A DNA stretch of 64,000 nt from IMG/VR virus record IMGVR_UViG_3300033148_005363, positions 1-64,000 of that record. One strand, 5' to 3'. Each line of letters starts with the position of its first letter. Positions within the stretch are counted from its first letter, which is position 1. A program made the position numbers and the translations under genes. The notes beneath the pieces were generated by a model. It was given only the letters and a program-made list of their open reading frames with translations, did not search any database and had not been told where the DNA came from. This DNA is from a virus. Below, in pieces: positions 476 to 63,530 of the stretch.

Positions 476-1147
476 CTAGACATCCTGCGCCAACAGGACA
501 TCGCGCCGGTAGAAGCGTGGTTCATCTTTGGGGATCAGGGCGGTCTTGCTTGTCCGCTGCCGCCCGGGCCAATCGGTGAAGAATCGGACCTTGATCACCG
601 AGGGGGTGGCTCCGTAGACGACCCCGGGGACGGCTCGCCAGATCCGCGGAGCGCCCCGCTTCCCCCCGCGTACCCACACCTTGTCACCATCGGGGATCCC
701 GTACTCGACGACGTCCAGGGGGTACCAAAGCCGCTGTCGGCAGTCCTGGCAGAGATCCATGGTAACCGGGGCCCTCGGGTCCTTGTCCCGCTGGTAGAGG
801 TGGGCGTCGCATTCCACGCAGTGGCCGGGCAGGAATTTCCGCTTGACCTGGTCGGCGACCTTCCGCGCCGTGCGGATCTCGTCACCGGAGACGGGGGCCT
901 CGACGTCATGGAACTCGGCCAGTGCGACCTCCGCGGCCTTCGCACCAGCCCGCCGCCGATTGTAGTCCTGGACGGACAAGAAGTTCCGGCAGTTGACATC
1001 GTGGTGAATGCCGTCGGGATCCCAATACCCGGATCCCATGTAATACTCGTCGTAGCACGCCCGCCTGGTCATATGACGCCAGCGGGTATCGCCACCCGAG
1101 GCTTTCCAGCGCGCATCGGATCGGCAGTGTCGGCAGATGTCAGACAT
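476..1147 (-). CDS. Hypothetical Cys-rich (CxxC x3) protein, last gene of the cas-containing operon
   Basis: CRHC, CVEC, CQDC motifs; starts 3 nt after the csf3 stop with a GGAGG RBS. Confidence 0.6.
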   Translation of the reverse strand: MSDICRHCRSDARWKASGGDTRWRHMTRRACYDEYYMGSGYWDPDGIHHDVNCRNFLSVQDYNRRRAGAKAAEVALAEFHDVEAPVSGDEIRTARKVADQVKRKFLPGHCVECDAHLYQRDKDPRAPVTMDLCQDCRQRLWYPLDVVEYGIPDGDKVWVRGGKRGAPRIWRAVPGVVYGATPSVIKVRFFTDWPGRQRTSKTALIPKDEPRFYRRDVLLAQDV

Positions 1148-1150
1148 TCC

Positions 1151-1828
1151 TTACCTCCTCCAGGGCAAATAGTCCCCCGCCTCCACATAATCACCCACGT
1201 CGCACATAGGGCGCGTGTCCACGCTGTTCCAGTACGGCGGGCGGGTGCGGCAGATCCGCACGCCGTCCTCGACAGGCAGATACCGCATCGCTTGCCCGTC
1301 CCGCACCACAGACAGGTCTTTGTCCACCACCTCGACCGTGACACCCACGACGCGCCCCCGCCCGCGTGCCCGGTCCCTGCCCAGGTAGCGGATCGGCTTC
1401 TGGCGGAAGAGCTTGGCCACCTCCTTGCGAACGCCGTACACGTACCCGACCATGGACGTACAGAGCACCAGGGGTAGGCCGACATTCCATTCCTTGCCTG
1501 TGCCAATCTGTGTATTCCAGGTGCCCTTGGTCATGTGCAGCCGGTCTTGCTGCATCTTCCGCCGTCGGTAGTCCATGGATTCAGCGGTCTCCCCGTCCGG
1601 GGTCAACGCGCTTGTGCAGTAGCCCCATACGGAGCGGTCAAGCCTCCATCGCCAGCGTCCCAGGGGCATCCTGATATCGTCCGGCCTCTCGTCTCTGGCC
1701 GGTGGCGTGAGCCCCTGGTGCGGAGCCAGGATAGCGCCCAAGAGCGCGTCGAGGTGGATAGGCTCATGAGGATCCAGCACTACGCCGGAGCCATCGAGGG
1801 TGAATGTGATCTTCAGTGGTCTCAGCAT
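1151..1828 (-). CDS. csf3: Type IV CRISPR-associated Cas5-family protein Csf3
   Basis: PLKITF start, PIHLDALL, Gly-rich loop YLGRDRARGRGRV, C-terminal RPPYW; start set at ATG 1828 after GAGGAG. Confidence 0.85.
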   Translation of the reverse strand: MLRPLKITFTLDGSGVVLDPHEPIHLDALLGAILAPHQGLTPPARDERPDDIRMPLGRWRWRLDRSVWGYCTSALTPDGETAESMDYRRRKMQQDRLHMTKGTWNTQIGTGKEWNVGLPLVLCTSMVGYVYGVRKEVAKLFRQKPIRYLGRDRARGRGRVVGVTVEVVDKDLSVVRDGQAMRYLPVEDGVRICRTRPPYWNSVDTRPMCDVGDYVEAGDYLPWRR

Positions 1829-1839
1829 TGGGTTCTCCT

Positions 1840-2568
1840 CTACACCATTCCGAGGTGTCGCAGCTTGCGATACAGCGCAGGATAGTGTCTGCGCACGTAC
1901 TCTGCGGAGCCGCTTTCCTCGCGCGTGACATTCCATGCCCAGCCCACGCGGATCGCGTTGCGGTCTCGCCACTCGGTGCGCTGATAGGCGGGGTGGATCG
2001 GCAGGCCGTGCTCGTCCAGATAGGCAAACGAATCAGCTCCCAGCCAGCGCCGCATCGGATTGGCTACAGCGCACCCCCAGTAGGGACTGTCCCGGATCGG
2101 GCCTCGGCTCTGGATAAGGATCTTGCGCTGCGGGGCCTCGTCCATGCGCAGCCCGACGAAGTTGAGCACGATCCCGTTTTCGATCAGTGCTTTACGGATC
2201 GGCTCCACAAGCACGCATTCATGAGTGCGACGGGTATTTCTCCGGGCGGCATCATGCCCCTCTTTTTTCCAGTGCGCCATGACATCGCCGGGGGCAATCA
2301 CCAGCGGACGCCCCAGCAACTCAGCAGTGCGTCTGACGACCCCCTCGGTTTCCTCCATCTCCAGACCGGAGTTGTTCCACATGACGACCGGGTCGCAATG
2401 CTGGACCACGATATGCGCCATGGCTACGGAGTCCTTGCCCCCGGACACTGCCACCGTCGCGGGGCCTGGATACTGAACGAGTGCCTCCTTGACGATAGCA
2501 TGGGCATCCGCTATCACGCCCCGATAATGGCGCCCCTGTGTATGCCTGTAGAGCACGTCCTCAAGCAT
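1840..2568 (-). CDS. cysH: CysH/PAPS-reductase-like protein (type IV-B accessory)
   Basis: PP-loop AVSGGKDS, FVGLRMDEAPQR, NPMRRW, LPIHPAY; start overlaps the csf1 stop. Confidence 0.85.
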   Translation of the reverse strand: MLEDVLYRHTQGRHYRGVIADAHAIVKEALVQYPGPATVAVSGGKDSVAMAHIVVQHCDPVVMWNNSGLEMEETEGVVRRTAELLGRPLVIAPGDVMAHWKKEGHDAARRNTRRTHECVLVEPIRKALIENGIVLNFVGLRMDEAPQRKILIQSRGPIRDSPYWGCAVANPMRRWLGADSFAYLDEHGLPIHPAYQRTEWRDRNAIRVGWAWNVTREESGSAEYVRRHYPALYRKLRHLGMV

Positions 2569-3271
2569 CGGCTGCGCTCCCGGCCGCTGCGTTCTTCCGC
2601 TCCTCAATGCTGGGCAACAGATAGCACACGAAGCGATACAGCGGAGACCTCCACTTGTCCGCGCTCCACTTCTCGAAATCCAGCCAGGTGCTGATTCCGG
2701 AGCGCTTGATCGTGGCGACGTTCGGGTGTCGGGATTCCAGCGCTGGCCGCCCGATCCCGCTTTCCAGATACCCGCACAGCCGGGTGTACATCGCCCTCAC
2801 CGCTGCGCCGTCTGAGCAATCCACAAGCACGTCGTCGAATGCCCACAGGGCGCTGCGCGGGTACGCGTTGACGCGGGCTACCAGGATCCCGTGCTTCTTG
2901 TATGACGTGGTGCAGTAGGCTGCCCATCGCTCAGGGGGCGAATCGAAGAACCCCTCCGGCCCCTCAAGGACGGCCCGGCGCACGTCCGGACGGCGGAGTT
3001 TGACGAACTGCCGGCCGTCGCAGATCCACGAACTCATCCGCTGCCATTTCCACTTGAGCGCTTGGTATGTCTCTACTCCTACCAGATCGCTATTCGGCGC
3101 AGCGAAGATTCCCTGGGTCGTGAAGTTGCCCCCGATCGCGTCCTTGCGGCGGATGCATGGCCCCTCCCTACCGGTGACCGCGCACGTCCCATGCACGGGC
3201 TCCTGTGGCAGCGGTACCCGCTCGGTGAGGGGTAGCAGAGCAGACGCTACCAGTTCAGCCGGACTACTCAT
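2561..3271 (-). CDS. csf1: Type IV large subunit Csf1 (Cas8-like)
   Basis: N-terminal CAVTG, SSWIC, TTSYKKHG motifs; lies between csf2 and cysH. Confidence 0.7.
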   Translation of the reverse strand: MSSPAELVASALLPLTERVPLPQEPVHGTCAVTGREGPCIRRKDAIGGNFTTQGIFAAPNSDLVGVETYQALKWKWQRMSSWICDGRQFVKLRRPDVRRAVLEGPEGFFDSPPERWAAYCTTSYKKHGILVARVNAYPRSALWAFDDVLVDCSDGAAVRAMYTRLCGYLESGIGRPALESRHPNVATIKRSGISTWLDFEKWSADKWRSPLYRFVCYLLPSIEERKNAAAGSAADA

Positions 3272-4499
3272 CCGAACCAGCGGGAGCGATAGCCGAGATC
3301 TCCCGGAGGAAATCCAGGATCATGTCCTTGTTCTCGGCGAGGAAGGTCTCGTACGGCTCCGAGGACGGGAGGTTGTCGTACTCGATTTCCACGCTCCCGA
3401 GCCCGCGGCGTCCCTCGGCACCCAGCCGCCCCTGCTTGCGCATGAGTTCCAGGCCGACAGCAAGCGCGGACAGTTCGACCTCCGAGATATGACCCAGCAG
3501 ATCCACGCCGCCCTCCAGTTCTACGCCTGTTTTCAGACACTCGGTGGTGGCGATCATGCCGGAGTGCTTGTCGTACTCCTCGCGGTCCTCGCGACGGGTC
3601 AAGAACTCCCAGCAGAAGAGCTGCGAAACGTTCTGCTCACCCGTCCCCCACTGCTTGCACAGCGGACGCAGGTCGTTCACCTGGATCCTGCCAGCCAGGA
3701 TCTTGTTGCCGACTGAGCACCCGAGAAGGCTGATCGACGGGAGCGTGTCGCGGAAGCGATGCACGCCCCTGGCCTTGACGGCACCGGCGCTCCCGAGTAC
3801 GGCGGCGACGGCCTTGTGCGCCTTGCTGGTCTTCTCTTCCAGCGCGCCCCCTGAGTAGAGGACCTGGAAGAAGTAGGGCTCGATCGGTGGATTGCTGCGG
3901 CTGGGGACCAACCCCAGATTGTCTAGCAGGTGGTCAGCCAGCAGGTCCCGCATCCGGCCCCGGAACGCGTTGCCCGCGTAGTACGGCAACGACAGGACCT
4001 TGTCCGTATCCGTAAGCACGTCCAGGCGGCGGAACATCGTGGCATTCCCGGCTTTGATGTCCGCGCCGTGAGACAGCGGCGACAAGCACTGGACACGGAT
4101 CGGGATGTCGAATCCTCTCCGCTGGGGAGCTGCCCCGCTGGCCCCCTCGTCTGCCTCGATATCGATCGATTCCAGGCTGGACAACAGCATGGCCTCGTCC
4201 GTGACGGCCGAAAGCATCGCCGCTATACGGGAGTGCCCCGACAGCCAAGCCACCACGGCCGGCGCGTCGGGGTTCGCGCACTCGGTCAGAAACGCGGTGA
4301 CCGTGGTCTCCGCTATCTTGTCGGCCGCGAATTCCACGGACTCCACCAGATGTTCCATCATGGACACCAGGCTGGCCTCGGTGCACGCCTGCCGGATGCG
4401 GTCAGCGAAGAAATCCAGGAAGTTCCTGGAAACCTTCATCTGCGCGCCGTCGCGCACAGCGCTCATCATCCTGATTGTCGTTTCGAGTGTCTTGTTCAT
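3264..4499 (-). CDS. csf2: Type IV Cas7-family Csf2 with an N-terminal helical (Cas11-like) extension
   Basis: LSPLSHG, PYYAGNAFRGRMRD, LYSGGAL, PSISLLG, FLTRREDR, G-loop LGAEGRRGLG; about 120 extra N-terminal residues. Confidence 0.88.
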   Translation of the reverse strand: MNKTLETTIRMMSAVRDGAQMKVSRNFLDFFADRIRQACTEASLVSMMEHLVESVEFAADKIAETTVTAFLTECANPDAPAVVAWLSGHSRIAAMLSAVTDEAMLLSSLESIDIEADEGASGAAPQRRGFDIPIRVQCLSPLSHGADIKAGNATMFRRLDVLTDTDKVLSLPYYAGNAFRGRMRDLLADHLLDNLGLVPSRSNPPIEPYFFQVLYSGGALEEKTSKAHKAVAAVLGSAGAVKARGVHRFRDTLPSISLLGCSVGNKILAGRIQVNDLRPLCKQWGTGEQNVSQLFCWEFLTRREDREEYDKHSGMIATTECLKTGVELEGGVDLLGHISEVELSALAVGLELMRKQGRLGAEGRRGLGSVEIEYDNLPSSEPYETFLAENKDMILDFLREISAIAPAGSDE

Positions 4500-5065
4500 T
4501 GCTTTTCCCTCCATTTTCTCTGTTGGTACACCACTACATACACCCCGTGCCTGACCACCCTGAGCCGCTTCTGCTCAACGAATCTCAGGAGGATCGTCTC
4601 GACCTTGGCGACCGTCTCCGCCCCGATCTCGCTCTTGATATCGAATGCGTACCGATGTTGCTCATCCTCAAGCAGGTGCGGGATCAACGTCGCCGCCGTG
4701 AACGGCTCATCCGCCTTGGGCCGGAGCACGCGGAGAACCTCCTCAAGCGCCCGTTGCCGCAGCACGCGCTTTCGAAACGCTCGGTTTTCTTCGTTGTCCG
4801 TGAGTCCCCATTTGCCCATGAAGTACAGGAGGTTCTTCGGCGTCCAGTGCTTGCCCTTGATCGTCGTGATCCCCGCTCTGTTCAGGCGATCGGCGATTTG
4901 CTGCGTCGTGTTCCCCTTGTCTTGACCATCTCGGATCATGGTGCGGACCCGTCGCTCTTCGGGGTGAGGTTGCCGACGCAGATTTTCCCAGCGCTTATCC
5001 GTCCGGTAGATCTTGAGGGGCCTCTTCTTGTACTTGTTGGGGACGTGTCTGTAATACTGGACCAC
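4496..5065 (-). CDS. DNA-binding protein with serine-recombinase-type 'Recombinase' domain and probable C-terminal winged helix
   Basis: IADRLNRAGITTIKGKHWT motif; no catalytic resolvase domain; ATGA overlap with csf2. Confidence 0.6.
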   Translation of the reverse strand: MVQYYRHVPNKYKKRPLKIYRTDKRWENLRRQPHPEERRVRTMIRDGQDKGNTTQQIADRLNRAGITTIKGKHWTPKNLLYFMGKWGLTDNEENRAFRKRVLRQRALEEVLRVLRPKADEPFTAATLIPHLLEDEQHRYAFDIKSEIGAETVAKVETILLRFVEQKRLRVVRHGVYVVVYQQRKWREKQ

Positions 5066-7209: not shown

Positions 7210-7238
7210 ACTCTACGATACGTCGAACGCGCTGTCAA
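7210..7238 (-). promoter_or_regulatory. Sigma70-type promoter for the HTH-ssb-cas operon
   Basis: TTGACA-N17-TAGAGT on the minus strand in an intergenic gap. Confidence 0.7.
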
Positions 7239-11063: not shown

Positions 11064-12029
11064 TCACGACACGTCCGCAAACAGCGGGGCGTCGCCTTTG
11101 ATACGCTTCCTCGCGATCTCTGCATACTCCGGGTTCAACTCGATGCCGATGCAGTCCCGGCCCAGGCGATCCGCTACTAGGCCCGTGGTGCCAGCGCCGA
11201 AGAAGGGGTCAAGGACGGTCCCGTCTTCTGGGCAGCCAGCCTTGATGCACCGCTCCGGCAGCTCAGGCGGAAACGTGGCGAAGTGGGCCTCGCTGAACGG
11301 CTTGGTTCCGATGGTCCAGACGGAGCGGACATTGCGCACATCGACCAACCCGCTGACCGCAGCAGAAAACGACTCGTTCTGTTTGCATCCTGCAGCGTTC
11401 GCCTTGGCTTTCGGATTCACGCCGTTTCCGCGAGCGTGAGCAGTGCCAGCAACCGGCTCCTTCACCGCTTCCTGATCCCAGAAATACCGCCCCGACTTAG
11501 ACAGCAGAAACACATACTCGTGCGCCTTGGTGCAACGGTCCCGCACGCTCTCAGGCATCGGGTTAGGCTTGTGCCAGATGATGTCCTGTCGCAGGTACCA
11601 GCCGTCCGCTTGCAGGGCCAGGGCCACGCGGGCAGGGATCATGCACAGGTCTTTGGGCTTGAGCGATGCCAAGCGTCTGCCGGGATACTTCGGCTGGCCT
11701 TCCTTGATTCCGCCCTTGCCGTAGTCACCCCCCGCCCCGCCGCTCCCGTTGTACGAGTCCCCCAGATTCAGCCACAGCGTTCCATCGTCTCGTAGGACCC
11801 GCCGCACCTCACGGAAAACGGCGACCATCCGACAAACATAGCATTCCCCGCAGGTCTCCCCCGTTGCCCACCCCAGGCAATCCTGCACTGCCTCAAGCCC
11901 GATCTGTCCGTCTTCGCCGTAATCGCGAAGTCCAGCGTACGGAGGGCTCGTCACACAGCAGTGGACGGACTCGCCCGGGAGCTCGCGCAGACGCTCGATG
12001 CAGTCTCCGATGAGGATCCTGACCGTCAT
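11064..12029 (-). CDS. Beta-class amino-DNA methyltransferase (N4-C/N6-A)
   Basis: TSPPY catalytic motif, HFATFP, VLDPFFGAGTTG. Confidence 0.92.
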   Translation of the reverse strand: MTVRILIGDCIERLRELPGESVHCCVTSPPYAGLRDYGEDGQIGLEAVQDCLGWATGETCGECYVCRMVAVFREVRRVLRDDGTLWLNLGDSYNGSGGAGGDYGKGGIKEGQPKYPGRRLASLKPKDLCMIPARVALALQADGWYLRQDIIWHKPNPMPESVRDRCTKAHEYVFLLSKSGRYFWDQEAVKEPVAGTAHARGNGVNPKAKANAAGCKQNESFSAAVSGLVDVRNVRSVWTIGTKPFSEAHFATFPPELPERCIKAGCPEDGTVLDPFFGAGTTGLVADRLGRDCIGIELNPEYAEIARKRIKGDAPLFADVS

Positions 12030-14233
12030 TTCGCCGCCCCCGCCGCCTCACCAAACAGGTCCGTGGCCCGGGGCTTGCGCAGCCGCTCCATGAGGTGGGT
12101 GAACCGCTCCACAGGCCGGTTGTTCGACACCGCCCGGCCGCGGGCCTTGCCCATGCCCACCACGATCACCTTTCGCTCCCCGCGGGTAATCGCCGTGTAG
12201 AAGAGATTGCGGGCTAGCATAATGTAGTGTGACCAGTGTACTATCACAATTATTGCAGATAGCTGGCTTCCCTGATATTTATGAATTGTACACGCGTAGG
12301 CGAGTTGCAGGTTCCACGTCTGCGTCCGCGTGTATTCCACCGTCTGCCCGTCGATCCGCACGTAGAGCCGGAACGGCTTCGCGTCGAAGTTCACCACCGT
12401 CCCGATGTCGCCGTTGTACACCTCCAGTTCGTAGTCATTCCGCGTCTGCATGACCTTGTCGCCTACGCGCACCGAGCCCCCGTCCTGGAATCTCAGCGCC
12501 GCCTCGCCGTGCTTGTTCAAGCGCCCCTGCAACAGCCGATTGAGGCCCTCAGTACCGATCGGCCCTTTGCGCATGGGGGTCAGGATCTGGACGTCGCGCA
12601 CCGGATCAAAGCCCTCCTCGCGCAACCGCTGTAACGCTTCCAAGACCTGGACCTGCGCGCCTGTCGGATCCGGGTCAGCGTCGATCCACTCCATGTCCTG
12701 CGCCTGCCCCTCCTCAGCCTGCCACACAAGCTTCTCCTCGGCCTGCACGCGGTGGGCGTTCGCGATGATCATGCTCCCCTGCGCTTGCCGGTAGATCACG
12801 TCCAGGCGCGTCACGGGGACCACCTCCGACTGGATCACGTCGCGAAGCACCGCGCCCGGGCCAACGCTCGGGAGCTGGTCAACGTCGCCAACCAGGATCA
12901 GCCGGTGCTCGTCAGTCAGCGCGTCCACCAGCCGATAGGCCAGGTTGATATCCACCATCGAAACCTCGTCAATGATCACCGTCCCCGCAGGCAGCGGGTT
13001 CGCGGCGTTCATTCGCCAGCCCTCATCGGGGTGATACGCGAGGAGCCGATGGATCGTCCGCGCTTCCAGGCCCGTGGATTCCTCCATGCGCTTCGCGGCC
13101 CGGCCCGTGGGCGCGGCCAGGGCTACGGATTCCCTCCGTTGGCGTAGGAGGTAGAGCATTGCCTTGAGCACGGTCGTCTTGCCCGTCCCCGGCCCTCCGG
13201 TGACGATCGACACCCTCCGGCTCACGCTCGTCACCACCGCCTCCCACTGCCGATCCGAAAGGTCGTGCCCCATGTGCGCCTCCACCGCGTCCCGGTCCAC
13301 CAGGGTAATCTGGTCGTCCACCTTGGACATCGCAGCCAGGGTGGTTCCCACCTTGCTCTCAGCATTGTACAGGGGCATCAGATAGACGCGGCACTCGGGG
13401 TCCTCCAGTCTCCCGTCGGCGCAGACGCGCGCACCCCGCACGAGGGAGCGCAGCGCGTCGTCAACGTTCTCCGCCGGTACACCGAGGAGCCTGCACGCGT
13501 CCTGATGGAGCTTCCCGAGCGGCAGATAGCAGTGACCCCCGTTCTTCTGCGCCTCCTGCAACGCGAACTCGGTGCCCGCCTGGACCCGGAACGGGGAGGT
13601 CGTCGGGATCCCCATGCGCTTGGCTACCGCGTCCGCCTTCTTGAATCCGATGCCATCGACCCGCGTCAGCAGGTACGGATTTTCTTCCAGCATCCCCACC
13701 GTCTGGTCTCCGTACCTCTTGTACACGCGGGTGGCGTACGCAGCCGAGATCCCGATGCGGAAGAGGAACACCATCACGTCCTTCACCGCCTTCTGCTTGA
13801 CCCACGCCTCAGCGATCTTGCGGGCGCGCACGGGGCCGATCCCCTCGACGGTCCTCAGTCGTTCGGGATGGTGCTCAATGATATCCAGGGTCTCCAGACC
13901 GAATGCCTTGACCAGCCGCCGGGCCATGACGGGGCCGATGTCCTCAATCAGCCCCGAGGCCAGGTACTTGACGATCGCCTGGATACCCTGTGGCTCGGTG
14001 ACCGTGTAGTCCGTCACCTGGAGGTCTTGCCCGCCGTACCGATCGTTCTCCTTCCACGTCCCTTCTGCGACAATCTTCTCACCGGGGAGGACACCGGGCA
14101 TCTTGCCCACGATCTTCGCTTCCCGCCCGCTTCCGACATCCACCACTGCCACGGTGAAAAACGACTCATCGTCCCGGTAGATGAAGTGGGTGATAGTCCC
14201 CTCTACTTTCCCCTTGCCGTCTCGCTCAACCAT
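12026..14233 (-). CDS. recD2: RecD2-like SF1B helicase
   Basis: HhH N-terminal domain, GGPGTGKTT, APTGRAAKR, IIDEVSM, GDVDQLPSVG, AYACTIHKYQGSQ, YTAITR. Confidence 0.92.
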   Translation of the reverse strand: MVERDGKGKVEGTITHFIYRDDESFFTVAVVDVGSGREAKIVGKMPGVLPGEKIVAEGTWKENDRYGGQDLQVTDYTVTEPQGIQAIVKYLASGLIEDIGPVMARRLVKAFGLETLDIIEHHPERLRTVEGIGPVRARKIAEAWVKQKAVKDVMVFLFRIGISAAYATRVYKRYGDQTVGMLEENPYLLTRVDGIGFKKADAVAKRMGIPTTSPFRVQAGTEFALQEAQKNGGHCYLPLGKLHQDACRLLGVPAENVDDALRSLVRGARVCADGRLEDPECRVYLMPLYNAESKVGTTLAAMSKVDDQITLVDRDAVEAHMGHDLSDRQWEAVVTSVSRRVSIVTGGPGTGKTTVLKAMLYLLRQRRESVALAAPTGRAAKRMEESTGLEARTIHRLLAYHPDEGWRMNAANPLPAGTVIIDEVSMVDINLAYRLVDALTDEHRLILVGDVDQLPSVGPGAVLRDVIQSEVVPVTRLDVIYRQAQGSMIIANAHRVQAEEKLVWQAEEGQAQDMEWIDADPDPTGAQVQVLEALQRLREEGFDPVRDVQILTPMRKGPIGTEGLNRLLQGRLNKHGEAALRFQDGGSVRVGDKVMQTRNDYELEVYNGDIGTVVNFDAKPFRLYVRIDGQTVEYTRTQTWNLQLAYACTIHKYQGSQLSAIIVIVHWSHYIMLARNLFYTAITRGERKVIVVGMGKARGRAVSNNRPVERFTHLMERLRKPRATDLFGEAAGAAK

Positions 14234-51729: not shown

Positions 51730-53910
51730 TCACCCCTCCGGCGTCCGGTTGGCCCGCCCACCGATTGAGAACCCTGTCAATTTACCGACCTGCACATCGG
51801 CCCACATCTTGTCGTCGAGGATCTTCCAGCCCTGGAGCCAGTCACCCTTCTTGATCGCCTCGGCCTTGCCGTCCGCTGTCTCTGACCCCGGGATCTCAAA
51901 GTCTGCCAGCGCCTGGAAATTCTCGATCAGGACGACGCGGTTCCCCGCCGCCTCGCGGTGCAGGAACCCTTCCTTGTGGCCCTTCTCCATCCAAGAGAAC
52001 ATCGCCTCTCGGACCGCTGCCTCGTCGTAGATATCGCCCTGCTTGTCCTCGACATTCGCCCGCAGAACGAAGCCCAGGACATACCGCTCCTCTTTGGATG
52101 GATCGGCCTTGAGGAGGGTGACGTCCCACGCCTTGGTGGTATCGCCCGGTGCATCCTTCCCCGTCATGGCCGCGCCGCACTTGGGGCACTTCGTTTCGTT
52201 GCATGGCGCGCCGCGATCATGGGGCGTTTCATGCCCGCACGCTGGGCATACACAGCGATCAGCGCCCCCGGTGCCTTCGGGAAGGCCGCCCTGACCCAGC
52301 CCCTTCTCCATCCGTCCCCGGAGGGCCTCGGGGAGCAGGAGATCCAGCGCGTCCTTCTCGTCGAAGGCGGGCTTGATCCCGAGCTTCAACTCTGCCTCGA
52401 CAATCCGGGTGTGTACGGTCTTGCGGTCGCCGTCGTTCGGGTACCCATCTGCGAACTGCTTGAACCGCACCCGCGCGTTGCGGGCTCGCTCCACCGTGTC
52501 GCAAGGGTACATAAGGTTCACGGGATCCCCGTAGTCCTCAAGGGTGGTCGACCACTTGGGCGGGAACGTCAGGCGTTCGCCCTGACCGTCGAGCGCGGTG
52601 ATCCCCCACTTCTTCGACCGGAGGGCCTGGGACTCCCGCTTCTCTTCGGTGGTCATCCCCGCCGCGGGCTCAAGAGCCACGGCCTTCTCAATGTGCTCAG
52701 CCAGGGACTTCACCGCCGCGGCGTCCATGCCCAGCAGTTCAGCCAGACCGACAATGCCCTTCTGGACCCCGGCGAGCTCTTCGTCCGGCACCTGCCCCTT
52801 CAGGACCTGATGCGCCGCCAACGCGGACTGCAAGATCACTTCCAGCGACACAGCGTCGTCGGACACCTCGGAGGGCTGGAGCCTGCCGATCCCCGTGTTC
52901 AGATCCTTCAGGACACGGAGGAGGTCGCCGACCATCGGGACCCCGGAGGCCAGCACTTCGGCCTGCGCCTCGGTGATCTGGACCCGCTGATCCTTCCGCA
53001 TCATGGACACGGTCTTCGCATCGAAGTTGGTGATAACCAGCATGGTCCCGGTCTTCGAGTGAGCGCCAGTCTTCGCCCACGGGACCGGCACCTTGTGGGA
53101 CTTCACGTTCAGCCCCTTCCAGATCCCGGGATCTCCCTTCTCTCCACACGTCACCAGCACGCGGCTCTTCAAGCCCTTGACCACGTCGGCGTGCTTCGCC
53201 TCATCCCATTTCTCCTCACCCACGAACTGCCGGAACCCGTGATAGGGAGGATCGTGGAACTGGAAGGTATCCGGCCCGTCGAACTCCTTGCAGACCTTCT
53301 CGAAATCCTCGTTGCGAATCACCACGCCAGCCAGGCGCTCCCGGGCCACTGCCATCCGCTTCACGGACATCGGAACACTGGTACGCGCAGATCCGATCCG
53401 CTCCATCGCAGGCGACGGGGTGCGACCGATCCCCATGAACGAGGCCAGTTTCAGAAGCAGGAACTTGTGGAACCGCGCTACGTCACCCTTCGGAGACGAG
53501 TCACGCAGCTTCTGGAAATCCGCTACGGTGTCCAACCACCACTGCATCCCCTCAAGTTTCTTGATCTGCGCATCGGTGACCTTCTGGACGAACCCGAACG
53601 CGAAGGCGATCTCCGCGTCCAGGTCGTTCAGGACTTCCTTCTCCGCCGGTTCCTTGGCGAAGAACATCGCCCCGCTGCCAGCGAAGGGCTCGACGTAGGT
53701 CTTGTGCTCGGGGAACATCTTCAGCAGTGGCTTAGCGATCGCGCTCTTGCCCGCGGGGGACTGCCACATCACGGCCATTTTCTGGACGTGTTCCAGCCCG
53801 AACATCTGAACCAGAGCGCGCTCGTCCTCAAGGAAATCCTTGCACAGGAATTCCACCAAGCCGCCGCTGCCAGTGTAGTCGAACTGTGGATCCATCGGAG
53901 GAGCCTCCAT
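51730..53910 (-). CDS. Fusion: Dam-like (D12) adenine methyltransferase + Zn ribbon + XkdF-like prohead protease
   Basis: YVEPFAGSG, LND, DPPY; CVCPACG..CPKCG; EERYVLG..DKQGD..H..LTGFSIGG. Confidence 0.8.
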   Translation of the reverse strand: MEAPPMDPQFDYTGSGGLVEFLCKDFLEDERALVQMFGLEHVQKMAVMWQSPAGKSAIAKPLLKMFPEHKTYVEPFAGSGAMFFAKEPAEKEVLNDLDAEIAFAFGFVQKVTDAQIKKLEGMQWWLDTVADFQKLRDSSPKGDVARFHKFLLLKLASFMGIGRTPSPAMERIGSARTSVPMSVKRMAVARERLAGVVIRNEDFEKVCKEFDGPDTFQFHDPPYHGFRQFVGEEKWDEAKHADVVKGLKSRVLVTCGEKGDPGIWKGLNVKSHKVPVPWAKTGAHSKTGTMLVITNFDAKTVSMMRKDQRVQITEAQAEVLASGVPMVGDLLRVLKDLNTGIGRLQPSEVSDDAVSLEVILQSALAAHQVLKGQVPDEELAGVQKGIVGLAELLGMDAAAVKSLAEHIEKAVALEPAAGMTTEEKRESQALRSKKWGITALDGQGERLTFPPKWSTTLEDYGDPVNLMYPCDTVERARNARVRFKQFADGYPNDGDRKTVHTRIVEAELKLGIKPAFDEKDALDLLLPEALRGRMEKGLGQGGLPEGTGGADRCVCPACGHETPHDRGAPCNETKCPKCGAAMTGKDAPGDTTKAWDVTLLKADPSKEERYVLGFVLRANVEDKQGDIYDEAAVREAMFSWMEKGHKEGFLHREAAGNRVVLIENFQALADFEIPGSETADGKAEAIKKGDWLQGWKILDDKMWADVQVGKLTGFSIGGRANRTPEG

Positions 53911-55144: not shown

Positions 55145-56536
55145 TCAGATCTCCGGCACCGTCGTCGTACGACAATATCCGTGGTACGGCGGGGGACCGA
55201 TGCCCTGTCCCTGCAGCGCCTTGTCGGAGAGCAAAAACTTGAACGCCCCGTCCTTTCCCCTGGTGGCGATGGGTGTCACCTTCCCGCTGGGTGGCTTGAG
55301 GAACATCTCCCCGCCGCTCAGCCTGATCCACGGTGCCGCCTGCTTGATCTCCCGGGGGTCGGACATACCAGCCCGGTCCCCGAAAGCCTTCATCGCCGTC
55401 CCGACCTCGAAGACCTTCCCGTGCAGCCCCACGCAGATAGGCGTCGTCGCCTCGTCCAGTACCGCCTCGATCCGGTACCGCTGGATCCCCGCCTCCGAGT
55501 ACCCGGCGATCTGCGCGTAGCTTCTGGCGTCCTGTACCCAAGCCTGCGCGCAGAGTTCCGCGTAGGCCCGATTCCGCCCGAAGGTTTCGTCCGACAGCCA
55601 CGTCCCCTCCAGTCGCCGCGCTATCTCCTTCGCGCCCAAACCGTCGGCAACCGCGGACTCCACCACCCGCATCCCATCGCGGGTCAACCGATCCCGCAGG
55701 TTCCCCCGCCTGTCGGTGAGGTAGTGCCCTGTCCGTCCCTTGATCCCGTCCACGATCCGCTGATCCATGTGGTTCAGCGAGGTCCGCAGCCGAATACTCA
55801 GCGCCGTCCCCACGCTCTTCGTGGTCCCGCTCACCACGGAGGTAGACGTAGTCGCCACCACGGCACCCACTGCCACCGCTGCCCGGCGATGCGTCGCCTG
55901 TACCCCCACCGCAGCCACAGCAGCGCTGATAACCTTCTCCCTGTCAGCAACGCTCAGCCCCGTCCAGTCGACGCCCTCAAGCCCCTTCAGCGACAGCCTA
56001 ATCGCTGCCCGCTCCTCGCGCTCCGGCAGATCGCCGATGTCCTTCGTCAGTTGCCGCACGATCTTCGCGAAGTCTCCCGTCTTGTTGGGATCCAGCGCCT
56101 TCTTCGCCTTCTCCACCTCCACCGGGACACCGAAGGCCCCCAGTATCTCGTCAGCGGCCGCGATGCCCGCCTCAATGAGGTCCGCCTCCCAGCACGGGAC
56201 CATTCGGCCCACCGTCTCGCCCACGGCCCCCAGCGAGCTGCTCGCCCGCACCCGCACCAAGTCAACAGGGTTCAGGGTCCTGCGCACGATGCGCTCCGCC
56301 GCCACCTTCGCCCCGCTCTGCACCACGTGAACGACCGGCCCCTCAAGGGCGTGCTCCACCAACACGAACCGCCGTCCCTGGGTGACGACCCGCTCCCCGC
56401 CCAAGAGGAGGATGCCCTCCCCCGCGGTGGCGAGTTTCCGCACCCCAGCCGCTCCCCAGATCCAATGCCCTGCGCCCTTCGTGATCATGGTCGTTCGATC
56501 CCGCGGCCGGACCTCAATGCTGATACCGTCGATCAC
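55145..56536 (-). CDS. MuF/SPP1 gp7-like head morphogenesis protein
   Basis: AVLDEATTPIC..LHG, PPYHGYCRT. Confidence 0.85.
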   Translation of the reverse strand: MIDGISIEVRPRDRTTMITKGAGHWIWGAAGVRKLATAGEGILLLGGERVVTQGRRFVLVEHALEGPVVHVVQSGAKVAAERIVRRTLNPVDLVRVRASSSLGAVGETVGRMVPCWEADLIEAGIAAADEILGAFGVPVEVEKAKKALDPNKTGDFAKIVRQLTKDIGDLPEREERAAIRLSLKGLEGVDWTGLSVADREKVISAAVAAVGVQATHRRAAVAVGAVVATTSTSVVSGTTKSVGTALSIRLRTSLNHMDQRIVDGIKGRTGHYLTDRRGNLRDRLTRDGMRVVESAVADGLGAKEIARRLEGTWLSDETFGRNRAYAELCAQAWVQDARSYAQIAGYSEAGIQRYRIEAVLDEATTPICVGLHGKVFEVGTAMKAFGDRAGMSDPREIKQAAPWIRLSGGEMFLKPPSGKVTPIATRGKDGAFKFLLSDKALQGQGIGPPPYHGYCRTTTVPEI

Positions 56537-58500
56537 CAGTCCCCTCCCCCGGCGACGGTCACGCCAACGTCTGCCCCGTCGTCGTCCTCCCAGTCAAGCC
56601 ACATCCCGTCCTCCTCCGAATACTCGGACATCATATCAGCGAGGAGGCCCTGGCTGTACACGTCGATCAGGCAAATCAGGCCCTCGACAAATGCGTCCAT
56701 CACGTCGTCGGTCACGTACAGCGGGAACTCCGTGAGCTCTGAAACCAGGTCCCCACGCTCCTGTGTCGCCTGGTCCCGCTCCGGATCCAGGTGGTCGGCG
56801 AAGATCACGTTCCCGGTCTCAATGTACGGCGACACCTCAAGCAACCGCGTCCCCTTGTCCGCGCTCGGCTTGAATCCGTACACGGGCAACATCGTCACCC
56901 GATCCAGTTCCTGAGCCAGGGCAGCCTGGTACCCGATGGTCTCGATGATAATCCGCCGCGCTCGCCACTTCAGCCAGTCAGCCACCACGCGCTTGAATTG
57001 CTGGAAGAAAGACAGTTTCGCGTGCCCAGCCGACAGCACGAACATCTTCTTCTCGCTGGGTGACCAGCCCTCCACGCACCACGCAAAGTAGTCGCTGCTC
57101 TTCTTCCCCGAAATCGCCAGGTCGTATGCAACGACCAAGTGCAGGTCATCGGGGAACTGCCTGAGCGGTCGGTACTTGATCCAGTGAGGCTGAATGACGA
57201 TCACGTCCCCGCTCAGCGCGATGTTCCTGAACCCGCGGTCGAACTCCACCTTCCCGATCTTCTTCCGCTGCCGGGACAGCGCAGCCCGCGGCCACATCGC
57301 CTCCCAGATCGGATCGAGGTTCTCGTTGATCGCGTACTCGCGAATAGCGTAGATCCTGTCCTTGTTCCGCAGGAGATCGTGGGTCAGGTCGTCTTTGTGC
57401 CACTTCGTCGCGATGTACCACGTCCGCCCCCCGGGGAGGAGGAGGTTAGAGAAATCGCCCTTGAACGACATCTTCACGTTCTCGCGCTGCTTCGGTTGCA
57501 GGATCGCGTTCCGCCGGTCCACCACGTCGTCGCAGATGTTCAGGTCAGACCGTCCGCCCGTCGCAGTCGACAGGATCCCCAGCGCGTGCACCGACGCATC
57601 GCGGGCCACGATGGTACGGCGCACGTACATCTTGTGCTTCGACCACTCGCCCTTTCCCGCCGGCAGCAAGTTCGGGAACACGAACTTCAGCCGCGGGTTT
57701 TCCTCAATATGCCTCTGGACCTCGTACAGACGCTCTTTCGCCTTGTCATCCGATTGGCAGACGATCTTGATACGCAGGTTCTGATTGTTGCCCAACTCCC
57801 AGAGCACCCGGCCCACGAGGATCGTCGTGTTGTGGGTGACGATCCCGCCGGTCACATGCGAGTGCAACCCCGGGACCTCGATCCCGAACGTCTGCCGCAG
57901 ACCAACAGGCGTCACGGACACCAGTTCATCCCACCCATGCCGCCCGTCGTCTTCCAGGACGCACACCGGATTCCCGGGGCAAAGTCTTCCAGCGTACACC
58001 CATTCGGCCCGCGTCCACACAGGGTGGTCCGTCGTCACCGTCAGCCGCCGGCCAGCGCCGGTCTCCAGTTCCACGCACTCCTGCACTCCCGAGTCGAATA
58101 CAGCGGAGCACGCCGCCGGCTTGAACTTCAACCCCCCATCGTCCCAGGCCAGCACCTCGTCCGGCTCCGTGATCTCCTCCACTGGCAAGCGGCGACCATC
58201 CGCCATCTGCACAGGCGTCCCGGCGACCATGCATTTTCCATGACCCCTTGGCGCTATGATTATGCAGTCCAGATGCTCACTCAGCAGGTCCAACCACTCC
58301 CGGTGGAACCACGCCAGCTTCAGCGGTTCACCGGTCTCGGTCTCGATCACGTATTCGATGAAAAGTTGAGGGTCCCGCCGCAATCGCCGCCTGAACAACT
58401 CGCGCCTGGCCAGGAACCGAAGGAACGCCAGCCGCACCATCTTCTGCCGGGGCGTCAGTGGCTCGTAGCGGGCCTCCGCAGTGGGGTCCGGGGTAGGCAC
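56533..58500 (-). CDS. terL: Terminase large subunit (intein-containing)
   Basis: APRGHGK|TT Walker A, TGGRSD..DD, TKWHKDDL, YDLA, DDVMDA. Confidence 0.92.
   Translation of the reverse strand: MPTPDPTAEARYEPLTPRQKMVRLAFLRFLARRELFRRRLRRDPQLFIEYVIETETGEPLKLAWFHREWLDLLSEHLDCIIIAPRGHGKCMVAGTPVQMADGRRLPVEEITEPDEVLAWDDGGLKFKPAACSAVFDSGVQECVELETGAGRRLTVTTDHPVWTRAEWVYAGRLCPGNPVCVLEDDGRHGWDELVSVTPVGLRQTFGIEVPGLHSHVTGGIVTHNTTILVGRVLWELGNNQNLRIKIVCQSDDKAKERLYEVQRHIEENPRLKFVFPNLLPAGKGEWSKHKMYVRRTIVARDASVHALGILSTATGGRSDLNICDDVVDRRNAILQPKQRENVKMSFKGDFSNLLLPGGRTWYIATKWHKDDLTHDLLRNKDRIYAIREYAINENLDPIWEAMWPRAALSRQRKKIGKVEFDRGFRNIALSGDVIVIQPHWIKYRPLRQFPDDLHLVVAYDLAISGKKSSDYFAWCVEGWSPSEKKMFVLSAGHAKLSFFQQFKRVVADWLKWRARRIIIETIGYQAALAQELDRVTMLPVYGFKPSADKGTRLLEVSPYIETGNVIFADHLDPERDQATQERGDLVSELTEFPLYVTDDVMDAFVEGLICLIDVYSQGLLADMMSEYSEEDGMWLDWEDDDGADVGVTVAGGGDW
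57829..58233 (-). mobile_element. 135-aa mini-intein in TerL Walker A
   Basis: Begins CMVAGT..MADG, block B TTDHPV, ends IVTHN followed by Thr; too short for a homing endonuclease. Confidence 0.9.
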
Positions 58501-61040: not shown

Positions 61041-61114
61041 TCGGGGTGGCCGGATTCGAACCGACGACGTCCTGGCCCCGAACCAGGCGCGCTACCAGAC
61101 TGCGCTACACCCCG
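61041..61114 (-). tRNA. tRNA-Pro (CGG)
   Basis: Cloverleaf: CGGGGTG acceptor, CCTGG-TTCGGGG-CCAGG anticodon arm, GGTTCGAATCC; no encoded CCA. Confidence 0.93.
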
Positions 61115-61118
61115 AAAG

Positions 61119-61190
61119 CAAGCCGACCGGGAATCGAACCCAGGATCTGCGGTTTTGGAGACCGCTGTTCTACCACTGAACTATCGGCCC
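61119..61190 (-). tRNA. tRNA-Trp (CCA)
   Basis: GCGGT-CTCCAAA-ACCGC anticodon arm, GGTTCGATTCC; two G-U pairs in the acceptor stem. Confidence 0.9.
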
Positions 61191-61206
61191 AGACAAACAC
61201 ACCCAG

Positions 61207-61279
61207 AGCACCGGGAGGGGATCGAACCCACTGCCTGCTGATTACGAAACAGCCGCTCTGCCAAGTGAGCTACCGGTGC
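61207..61279 (-). tRNA. tRNA-Thr (CGT)
   Basis: GCACCGG/CCGGTGC acceptor, loop TTCGTAA, GGTTCGATCCC. Confidence 0.9.
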
Positions 61280-62837: not shown

Positions 62838-62883
62838 GGGTGTTGCCCTCCCCTTGTTCCGTGGTGTTCTTCCCGCGCGTTCC

Positions 62884-63047
62884 CGTCGCTCCGCTCCGCT
62901 CTACCCCTTGCTTCTTCGCTGTCCTCTCCGCGCGTTGCCCTCGCTCCGCTCTTCACGTTCCTCGCGCTGCCCTCCCCTTGCTCCTCGCTGCCCTTCGTTC
63001 TCCTTCCCATCGCTCCGCTCTTCAACCCTTTGCTCCTCGCTGTCCTC
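62884..63047. repeat. Degenerate pyrimidine-rich repeats
   Basis: CGCTCCGCTCT at 62892, 62942, 63011; TTGCT(T)C(C/T)TCGCTG variants near 62907, 62977, 63029. Confidence 0.55.
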
Positions 63048-63530
63048 CATCGGTTCCTCTTGCCGCTCCCTGTGTCCGTCTCCTCCGGGGTCCTACACCT
63101 CCGCAGTTGACCTGTCCCGCGCGTTCCTCCCCGTACCCCATGCAGTGGGACGGGGTTTCGCGTCCGGTTGATCGGAAGTCCGCAGTAGTCGTTCGTTCCC
63201 AGCGCCTTGCTTCCTTGCCGCCTGGCTCCCTTGCTTCTGGTTCGCGGGGCCTCACCCATCGCTTCGGTCCCCGGTCGTCTGTGGTCGCTTCGTTGCAGGT
63301 CGCTCACTGCTTAGCCTCTTGCCTTTGCTCTTCCCGTCGTAGTCCCTTCGTTCCGCTGTGCTCCACTTGGGCCGTCCTCCGTAAGTCTGTCCTTTAACCG
63401 CTACTTAGTCAAGCCGCGGGCGGGCGGGGCTGCGCGCGTGTTTTACGGCGCGTGCGTGGGCGCGTTGGCGCTCAGTAACGCGCGTGCGTGCGGGGGTGGA
63501 TTCGCGGTGCGTCATGGGTGCGTCATTTTG

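Follow-up and report, generated by a model that had tools for sequence, protein, structure and literature searches.

What does a phage do with the effector proteins of a CRISPR-Cas system when no array accompanies them? The question is raised by four genes of the virus record IMGVR_UViG_3300033148_005363, a complete phage genome of 86,604 bp with a 114-bp direct terminal repeat, whose first 64 kb are the window analysed here. On the minus strand the genes follow in the order csf2, csf1, cysH-like and csf3 (Table 1), and a first-pass annotation had read them as an array-less type IV-B effector with CysH embedded in its operon. We conclude with high confidence that the module is a subtype IV-B effector cassette that lacks an array, adaptation genes, Cas6, helicase and nuclease and is carried by a tailed phage. 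With equally high confidence, we assign it to a clade, carried mostly by viruses, whose Csf2 has Cas11 fused to its N-terminus and whose operon runs cas11::csf2-csf1-[enzyme]-csf3. With regard to function, the reading that we favour, with moderate confidence, is that an RNA-bound Csf filament carries an exchangeable nucleotide-activating or modifying enzyme.

The families named in the first-pass annotation (Csf1, Csf2, Csf3 and PAPS_reduct) were all matched by profiles. Csf2 matched PADLOC typeIV_Cas7 over residues 139-406 (1.3e-41), and a profile built from 20 Csf2 homologues retrieved the Cas7c chain 11fs_C (1.2e-11) and the IV-B Csf2 chain 7jhy_e (1.5e-7). The AlphaFold2 (AF2) model of Csf2, with a predicted local distance difference test score (pLDDT) of 83.7, gave Foldseek matches to type IV-A and IV-B Cas7 chains with E values down to 3.5e-9. 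Csf3 matched PADLOC Csf3_0_IV (typeIV_Cas5) at 8.2e-26, and its profile found the Csf3 chains 7xfz_B (1e-16, nearly full length) and 8rc3_F (4.9e-15) in the PDB. The scores of the NCBIfam equivalog models cas7_csf2 (2.3e-8, 33.7 bits against a cut-off of 130) and cas5_csf3 (3.7e-12, 46.3 bits against 140) were far below their cut-offs, indicating that both proteins are divergent members of their families. Csf1 matched PADLOC Csf1_0_IV (typeIV_Cas8) over residues 21-150 (4e-9). In an alignment of 39 Csf1 homologues W82, H127, G128, N135 and R175 were invariant, Cys30 was near-invariant, and a TTSYKKHG motif was present. The large subunit matches Csf1, and none of the nine scanned proteins had an HD or Cas10 match.

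No CRISPR-like repeat-spacer pattern was found in the whole 86,604-bp genome, and Cas1, Cas2, Cas6_C, cas_cas6, Csy4, Cse3 and Helicase_C_2 each had no match in it. PADLOC detected no Cas6 among the nine genes around the module; these searches may miss a very divergent Cas6. There was no DinG/RecD helicase in the locus; the replication genes, at a distance of 7.5 kb, include a helicase of the Dda/RecD family (12026-14233), and no helicase recurs beside related cassettes. The lack of an array, cas6, cas1, cas2 and dinG that had been reported for the 64 kb therefore holds for the full record, and no cognate array or cas6 elsewhere in the genome turns the module into a conventional system. Published work defines IV-B by Csf1, Csf2, Csf3, Cas11 and an adjacent cysH-like gene, with no array, Cas6 or helicase (PMC7038947, PMC8175902). 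The phage module shows all of these features, which supported its assignment to type IV-B.

The first-pass annotation had also described type IV-B loci as residing on mobile elements, usually lacking arrays, carrying cysH and having no established function, and this account is accurate: the subtype, its cysH partner, the lack of arrays and the unsettled function are documented (PMC7038947, PMC8175902, PMC7937560, PMC12669027, PMC13676074). The three functions that it suggested, namely sequestering of CRISPR RNAs (crRNAs), binding of other RNAs and guiding of CysH, are published hypotheses for IV-B (PMC7038947, PMC8175902, PMC7937560). The rarity that it implied was overstated, since IV-B with cysH has been placed on 'plasmids or predicted prophages' (10.1101/270033) and 'sometimes prophages' (PMC7038947), and type IV on 'several lytic phages' together with IV-B on an archaeal virus (PMC10848311). 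The Cas11-like domain within Csf2 and the altered gene order did not figure in that annotation.

The N-terminus of Csf2 is about 125 residues longer than that of the solved Csf2 chains, and this extension is very probably Cas11, so that small subunit and backbone would be one protein. Each line of evidence is weak when taken alone. PADLOC typeIV_Cas11 matched residues 24-64 weakly (0.0023), and a profile of 36 N-terminal domains matched the type IV-C chain Cas11c 11fs_N over 79 positions (E 2.2e-4). On a Natrinema plasmid csf2 is directly preceded by a gene of 138 amino acids (aa), with which the domain aligned collinearly in hhalign (P 0.0011, probability 21%). When the domain was modelled alone with AF2, seven helices were predicted with a pLDDT of 93.1. 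In a structure search of 48,161 representative chains the top match of the domain was the IV-B Cas11 chain 7jhy_h (Z 7.5, root-mean-square deviation 3.6 Å, 102 residues), and the next match had a Z of 5.0. The small subunit expected of a IV-B complex is very probably present as a domain of Csf2, not as a separate gene.

The fused length was general, as the 120 homologues listed were all 392-552 aa long with 92-99% query coverage. Among 1.84 billion representative proteins 121 carried the domain, comprising 60 full-length fusions, 14 truncated fusions, 21 fragments of less than 100 aa, 25 proteins of 100-379 aa that have no Cas7 core and are either stand-alone or cut, and a single unrelated protein of 4226 aa. 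A search restricted to proteins of 68-219 aa found four with the domain. In the literature found, PMC8175902 and PMC10910872 included and as far as it was available to us, there was no description of a Cas11::Csf2 fusion, the rearranged operon, a clade centred on viruses or the variants with a radical SAM enzyme or an empty slot that are described below; published supplementary locus tables (e.g. PMC7038947) may already list such loci.

Compared with the canonical IV-B system of Mycobacterium sp. JS623 (7JHY; PMC7937560, PMC7038947, PMC8175902), the phage module has the same Csf1, Cas11, Csf2, Csf3 and CysH-like protein with a PP loop and no catalytic cysteine. Both are borne on mobile elements and lack an array and Cas6 as well as adaptation genes, a helicase and a nuclease, and the model of the phage Cas7 and that of the N-terminal domain both matched 7JHY chains. 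However, Cas11 is a separate gene in the canonical system, its gene order is csf1-cas11-csf2-csf3-cysH instead of cas11::csf2-csf1-cysH-csf3, and its carrier is a plasmid instead of a complete tailed phage. By sequence, the phage Cas7 profile matched the IV-C chain (1.2e-11) more closely than that of 7JHY (1.5e-7).

With tblastn at 1e-5, no actinobacterial plasmid and three archaeal ones were found. The closest plasmid relatives of the phage Cas7, at 27-30% identity, were on the archaeal plasmids of Natrinema thermotolerans (CP031299.1) and Thermococcus nautili (NZ_OX281346.1). In both of them csf1 comes first, and csf2 is directly preceded by a separate gene encoding 137-139 aa; the fusion could arise from such an adjacency by the loss of one stop codon. 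The Natrinema operon, like some phage modules, has IbrA-like DUF3440 and ParB-like proteins beside the cas genes. Its locus (L050; CP031299.1, 56327-65187) has the canonical csf1-cas11-csf2-csf3 followed by these two genes and is annotated almost wholly as hypothetical. On the Thermococcus plasmid a gene annotated as Cas6 (L051:4836-5579) occupies the Csf3 position and matched the Csf3 (Cas5) profile at 1.2e-19, and is probably a mis-named Csf3.

Two further systems were compared. Fuxivirus, a virus of Bathyarchaeia, likewise encodes a IV-B system with Csf1, Cas7, Cas5 and a CysH-like protein beside Cas5 and no adaptation module (PMC10848311). Unlike the phage module it belongs to an archaeal virus, the trees of that study treat its Cas11 as a protein of its own, and a two-repeat mini-array is present, whereas neither an array nor a mini-array was found in the phage genome. 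In the PDB sequence searches, each half of the fusion had its best match in type IV-C (PDB 11fs; PMC13676074), with Cas7c at 1.2e-11 and Cas11c at 2.2e-4. In IV-C, which is reported to be chromosomal and to act through an HD nuclease (PMC13676074), the large subunit is Cas10-like with HD, in contrast to the 236-aa Csf1 of the phage without an HD or Cas10 match. The Csf3 profile matched IV-A Csf3 at 1e-16 and Cas5c at only 0.038.

The gene between csf1 and csf3 is the only PAPS_reduct gene in the phage genome, and its product matched this Pfam family at 1.6e-15 (58 bits against a cut-off of 22.5). A profile of the CysH-like protein matched structures of 3'-phosphoadenosine 5'-phosphosulfate (PAPS) reductases with values up to 6.5e-23, the alignments ending near position 205 of 246, and all NCBIfam reductase models scored far below their cut-offs. 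The protein has the SGGKDS motif and ends with ...LRHLGMV. Across 22 CysH-like homologues no alignment column had an invariant or near-invariant cysteine. In true CysH enzymes the catalytic motif lies in the C-terminal tail (PMC8175902), and the tail with the catalytic cysteine that marks an assimilatory reductase of PAPS or adenosine 5'-phosphosulfate was not present here. CasCysH has been described as having the PP motif and no catalytic cysteine, and a role in AMPylation, the transfer of adenosine monophosphate (AMP), was proposed for it (PMC8175902). Compared by description, the phage protein agrees with CasCysH in both features.

PADLOC matched the PP-loop protein to SspD and BrxP, and its PDB matches included TtuA-type thiolases. 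These matches supported a background in nucleic-acid modification for this PP-loop family. The PP-loop, ParB/Srx-type and radical SAM families all include enzymes that modify nucleic acids (DndC, SspD, TtuA and DpdB). Complex prediction with Csf1, Csf3 or the CysH-like protein as partner, run without controls, gave a score of 0.00, which weighs neither for nor against an interaction.

The four genes of the module are translationally coupled, in line with the tight coupling stated in the first-pass annotation. When the junctions were read base by base, csf2 and csf1 overlapped by 8 nucleotides (nt) (ATGAGTAG), csf1 and the cysH-like gene by another 8 nt (ATGCTTGA), and the cysH-like gene and csf3 were separated by an 11-nt gap with AGGAG inside it. 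The csf2 frame spans 3264-4514, or 3264-4499 when it starts from an ATG with GGAGG 8 nt upstream. We preferred the ATG at 4499 because of this upstream GGAGG and the agreement with the MN... start of the homologues. The cysH-like gene and csf3 were read from an ATG, with alternative open starts at a TTG (2607) and a GTG (1972), respectively.

The promoter proposed earlier for the operon, TTGACA-N17-TAGAGT, was found once in the window and in none of 100 shuffled sequences, and this predicted promoter agrees with the consensus at 10 of 12 positions. Between the promoter and the module, a simple scan found five terminator-like sites against 4.2 expected, which is no excess. An operator-like palindrome at 7212-7226, one mismatch from the 15-bp TCGACGATACGTCGA, overlaps the predicted promoter of this ssb-cas operon. 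A search for TCGACGATACGTCGA with up to three mismatches permitted placed the site at six promoter-like positions within the final 21 kb of the genome (65487, 68401, 69008, 72686, 83836 and 85481). The repeated site suggests one regulator for those promoters, and hints that the ssb-cas operon may be co-regulated with genes of the 65-86-kb region.

Related modules were collected from the Csf2 alignment by scans with peptide patterns, which were not exhaustive. They comprised 40 loci in IMG/VR, 37 of which matched beyond the Cas7 core, and seven loci among 185,579 species represented by one genome each. The seven, two of which coincide with IMG/VR contigs, were in genomes or metagenome-assembled genomes (MAGs) of Anaerolineales, Desulfofustis, Pedobacter, Sulfuriferula, Pseudomonadales, Syntrophaceae and Moduliflexus, and the phages that carry cassettes have hosts in several phyla. 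The order cas11::csf2-csf1-[slot]-csf3 was found in 33 of 36 distinct modules, the exceptions being L002, L014 and L032. In this tally near-identical pairs were collapsed (L004/5, L006/7, L015/16, L014/32, L024/46 and L027/45), and L025 and L026, which are 96-99% identical, were counted separately. Loci L040-L042 were left out as they matched the Cas7 core only and had no match to the Cas11-domain profile at E <= 0.01, L028 and L030 as contig ends cut the module, and L010 and L034 were also left out. The last two are viral contigs with cas11::csf2 and csf1 and no csf3 or cysH match at 1e-4 in the next 3.6 kb and 1.3 kb, respectively; they may be cassettes without Csf3 or with a divergent Csf3.

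The slot between csf1 and csf3 was more varied than the Cas genes around it. A short CysH-like protein alone was present in 19 of the 36 modules, the window included (L002 and L014 carry CysH-like in another order). Six modules combined it with an IbrA-like protein (PAPS_reduct+DUF3440) and an IbrB-like protein (ParB_N), and three had the IbrA/ParB-like pair alone. Another four carried a B12-binding-type radical SAM protein of 416-464 aa tightly coupled to both neighbours, and in the remaining four the slot was empty, with a csf1-csf3 spacing of 14-29 nt. Since relatives carry another slot enzyme or none, we regard the Csf particle as the constant platform and the enzyme as its exchangeable output. 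The replacements also bear on the idea that the CysH-like enzyme makes a nucleotide-derived second messenger upon binding of RNA or a target, which has been raised for CasCysH (PMC8175902, PMC13676074) and for which the intact PP-loop enzyme speaks. A radical SAM or IbrA/ParB-like replacement suggests no common messenger, and no gene of the cassette is a candidate for a sensor or effector, nor does the cassette have conserved neighbours; we consider such a signalling role very unlikely.

Where close pairs exist, the Cas genes of the cassette are under purifying selection, with ratios of nonsynonymous to synonymous substitution rates (dN/dS) of 0.09-0.22 for the Cas genes of L025/L026 and 0.06-0.15 for those of L017/L020, a pair near synonymous saturation. 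These values argue against a non-functional cas remnant, as do the intact frames, the 8-nt overlaps and the many invariant columns across 20-39 homologues. The related possibility that the cysH-like gene is an ordinary sulfur-metabolism gene of the phage has some backing in the frequent occurrence of PAPS-reductase homologues in phages (PMC11437467). However, the enzyme lacks a conserved cysteine, its alignment to PAPS reductases ends before the C-terminal tail, and the slot is filled in 32 of 36 modules. That the genes are unlinked or decaying is therefore hardly credible.

The genes next to the cassettes were not conserved. The 234 neighbouring open reading frames (ORFs) fell into 219 clusters, the largest of which, present at six loci, was an N6/N4 DNA methyltransferase, and none of the window's own flanking genes recurred at related modules. 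This suggested that the four genes travel as a cassette. At locus L008 a gpA-type large terminase is on one side of the cassette and a lambda-type portal on the other, and both of these families also flank L029 and L043.

An exact-word scan of 49 sequences (48 loci and the first 12.6 kb of the window; 629,570 bases), which would miss degenerate repeats, found no array in related loci. Two candidates were rejected: a perfect 60-nt tandem repeat in L023 has no spacers, and two identical 31-nt repeats in L043 (11484-11565) have a layout unlike an array. The L043 repeats, on an Anaerolineales MAG contig, are 51 nt apart, have a partial copy in between and lie about 190 nt downstream of csf3. Cas1 was found elsewhere in three of the five genomes that carry the cassette, so host crRNAs would be available in some hosts, which keeps alive two explanations that depend on them.

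In the first of these, the particle takes up crRNAs of the host or other small RNAs but makes no use of them, which disarms the RNA-guided defences of the host, the CysH-like protein being an accessory or marking the RNA. Such a sponge or anti-CRISPR was already raised in PMC7038947 and PMC7937560, and it would suit a phage-borne module with no array or Cas6, an operator-like site that its promoter has in common with the other early-type promoters of the phage, and a published IV-B complex that bound heterogeneous RNA (PMC7937560). However, PMC7038947 deems an anti-CRISPR of such complexity unlikely, the published experiment showed no preferential loading of co-expressed type I-E crRNAs (PMC7937560), and the retention of an enzyme in 32 of 36 slots and its swapping are left unexplained. 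We judge this explanation unlikely. In the second, the particle loads mature crRNAs of a host system and binds matching DNA or RNA of rivals, which it represses as IV-A does or modifies through the slot enzyme. Csf1, Csf3 and a Cas11-lined backbone are the target-binding parts of other class 1 complexes (PMC8175902), and the Cas1 genes in three of five carriers again allow a source of guides. Against it, neither Cas6 nor a repeat was found in the 86.6-kb genome or a repeat-spacer array in the 49 scanned sequences, hosts from several phyla are awkward for the recognition of one host repeat, and IV-B is negatively correlated with other CRISPR systems (PMC7038947). Interference by borrowed guides is in our view quite improbable.

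We return to the filament with an exchangeable enzyme. In the solved IV-B backbone six Csf2 subunits surround the RNA and five Cas11 subunits each sit on a Csf2-Csf2 interface, the RNA being heterogeneous (PMC7937560). By analogy, Cas11::Csf2 would polymerise on RNA with each Cas7 core gripping about 6 nt, and the tethered Cas11 domain would settle on a neighbouring Cas7-Cas7 interface, giving a 1:1 ratio with backbone and belly made by one gene product. Csf3 and Csf1 would cap the filament, and the enzyme encoded between csf1 and csf3 would work with the Csf particle. The CysH-like protein should bind adenosine triphosphate (ATP) and transfer or release AMP, in line with the proposal in PMC8175902. 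Since its ATP-binding motif is kept and the reductase cysteine is absent, it would most likely adenylylate or otherwise activate a substrate, most plausibly the RNA itself or a nucleic acid to which the filament binds. For a phage, the likeliest role would be in a contest, early in infection, with the defences of the host or with other mobile elements, which is speculation.

Several points weigh against this proposal. Four of the 36 modules have no slot enzyme, so the particle may act alone, and RNA binding by the solved IV-B complex showed no sequence specificity (PMC7937560), a behaviour as compatible with a sponge as with a guide. Phages commonly carry IbrA/ParB-like pairs, whose presence in the slot may in some cases be due to chance. 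PADLOC is the sole support for Csf1, which had no match in Pfam, NCBIfam or PDB sequence searches. As for the Cas11 domain, the Z of 7.5 lies within the chance range for helical bundles (the tool warns of values under about 13), Foldseek returned nothing for it at E <= 0.001 (7jhy_g ranked 13th with an E of 4.2), and hhalign to the Thermococcus gene in the Cas11 position was not significant (0.071).

A bolder version can be put forward only tentatively, and we think it rather unlikely in full. The phage clade as a whole would be a modular RNA-scaffolded machine for nucleic-acid modification, in which the filament selects or holds an RNA or its complementary target and the slot enzyme (PP-loop adenylyl-transferase, IbrA/IbrB-like pair or B12-dependent radical SAM) modifies it. 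The machine would be used early against RNA-guided or RNA-dependent defences of the host, or for marking the phage's own transcripts or DNA.

IV-B is the one widespread CRISPR-Cas subtype without known function, and the literature available to us places the key to it in the CysH-like partner. The phage module is a compact variant of this known system. Its compactness, with four coupled genes and with Cas11 and Cas7 apparently in one polypeptide, makes it a simple test construct. The clade provides a comparative handle, as the Cas parts stay constant while the slot enzyme changes or drops out, and this predicts that the particle is the platform and the enzyme its output. It also shifts the ecology of the subtype, being mainly on viral contigs of hosts of several phyla as opposed to plasmids of actinobacteria, the best-known setting of IV-B. 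If the module served counter-defence, it would be an unusually elaborate means of it; if it served guided modification, this would be a new activity for Cas effectors.

Table 1. Positions in the window of the module, its predicted promoter and the adjoining genes
Feature	Position	Strand	Remarks
Predicted sigma-70-like promoter, TTGACA-N17-TAGAGT	7210..7238	-	Heads the co-directional gene run ending in the cas module
189-aa gene	4496..5065	-	ATGA overlap with csf2; weak recombinase-type helix-turn-helix matches only
Putative Cas11-like helical domain	4125..4499	-	Csf2 residues 1-125, seven helices; linker of about 15-20 residues follows
Linker and Csf2 (type IV Cas7) RAMP core	3264..4124	-	Part of a 411-aa protein
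csf1, small Cas8-like large subunit, 236 aa	2561..3271	-	PADLOC Csf1_0_IV
cysH-like PP-loop ATP pyrophosphatase-type gene (CasCysH-like), 242 aa	1840..2568	-	Between csf1 and csf3
csf3, type IV Cas5, 225 aa	1151..1828	-	PADLOC Csf3_0_IV
223-aa cysteine-rich gene	476..1147	-	3 nt downstream of csf3; outside the conserved cassette

The two genes that adjoin the module were not kept beside related modules. The 189-aa gene upstream of csf2 reached 8.2e-4 with Pfam Recombinase, which is under the cut-off. The 223-aa gene downstream of csf3 had only a weak match to a double zinc ribbon (0.024). It was considered as a hidden Cas6 or another Cas protein and rejected, as it had no PADLOC match, its Atlas look-alikes scored below 0.9 and its model was poor.

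The large genes of the window are all on the minus strand. They encode a tape measure protein, a sheath-like protein, a portal, a primase/helicase, a Dda/RecD-like helicase and an SbcC-like protein, and judged by its genes the record is a tailed phage. No tyrosine integrase was found in the genome; the sole recombinase detected is a small serine recombinase of the resolvase family (1.5e-35) beyond the window, at 84237-84707 on the minus strand. Comparison with a phage collection at the DNA and protein level, from which records of the window's own genome were possibly excluded, found no close relative. For 1151-4514 no sequencing run was listed. A 74-aa fragment (P0122) from an 86,903-bp contig is 81% identical to the N-terminal domain of Csf2, and this suggests that a close relative of the phage, of nearly equal size, exists in public data.

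In the head module, a 726-aa ORF at 51730-53910 (minus strand) had matches to DNA methyltransferase families towards its N-terminus and, over residues 596-723, to families of head maturation proteases, and may be a methyltransferase-protease fusion. An Rfam scan of the window found transfer RNAs (tRNAs) only, three in number with a cluster at 61041-61279, and no candidate guide RNA. A further tRNA-like call by ARAGORN at 57824-57910 (minus strand) has a four-base anticodon, lies within the ORF 56533-58500, was without Rfam confirmation at the gathering score, and is probably false. Just past the tRNA cluster, at 62850-63050, there are three to four imperfect 47-nt direct repeats, 74% alike and spaced 50-69 nt apart. 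They were rejected as a CRISPR array since they have only 10-mers in common, and they may be iterons or promoter repeats.

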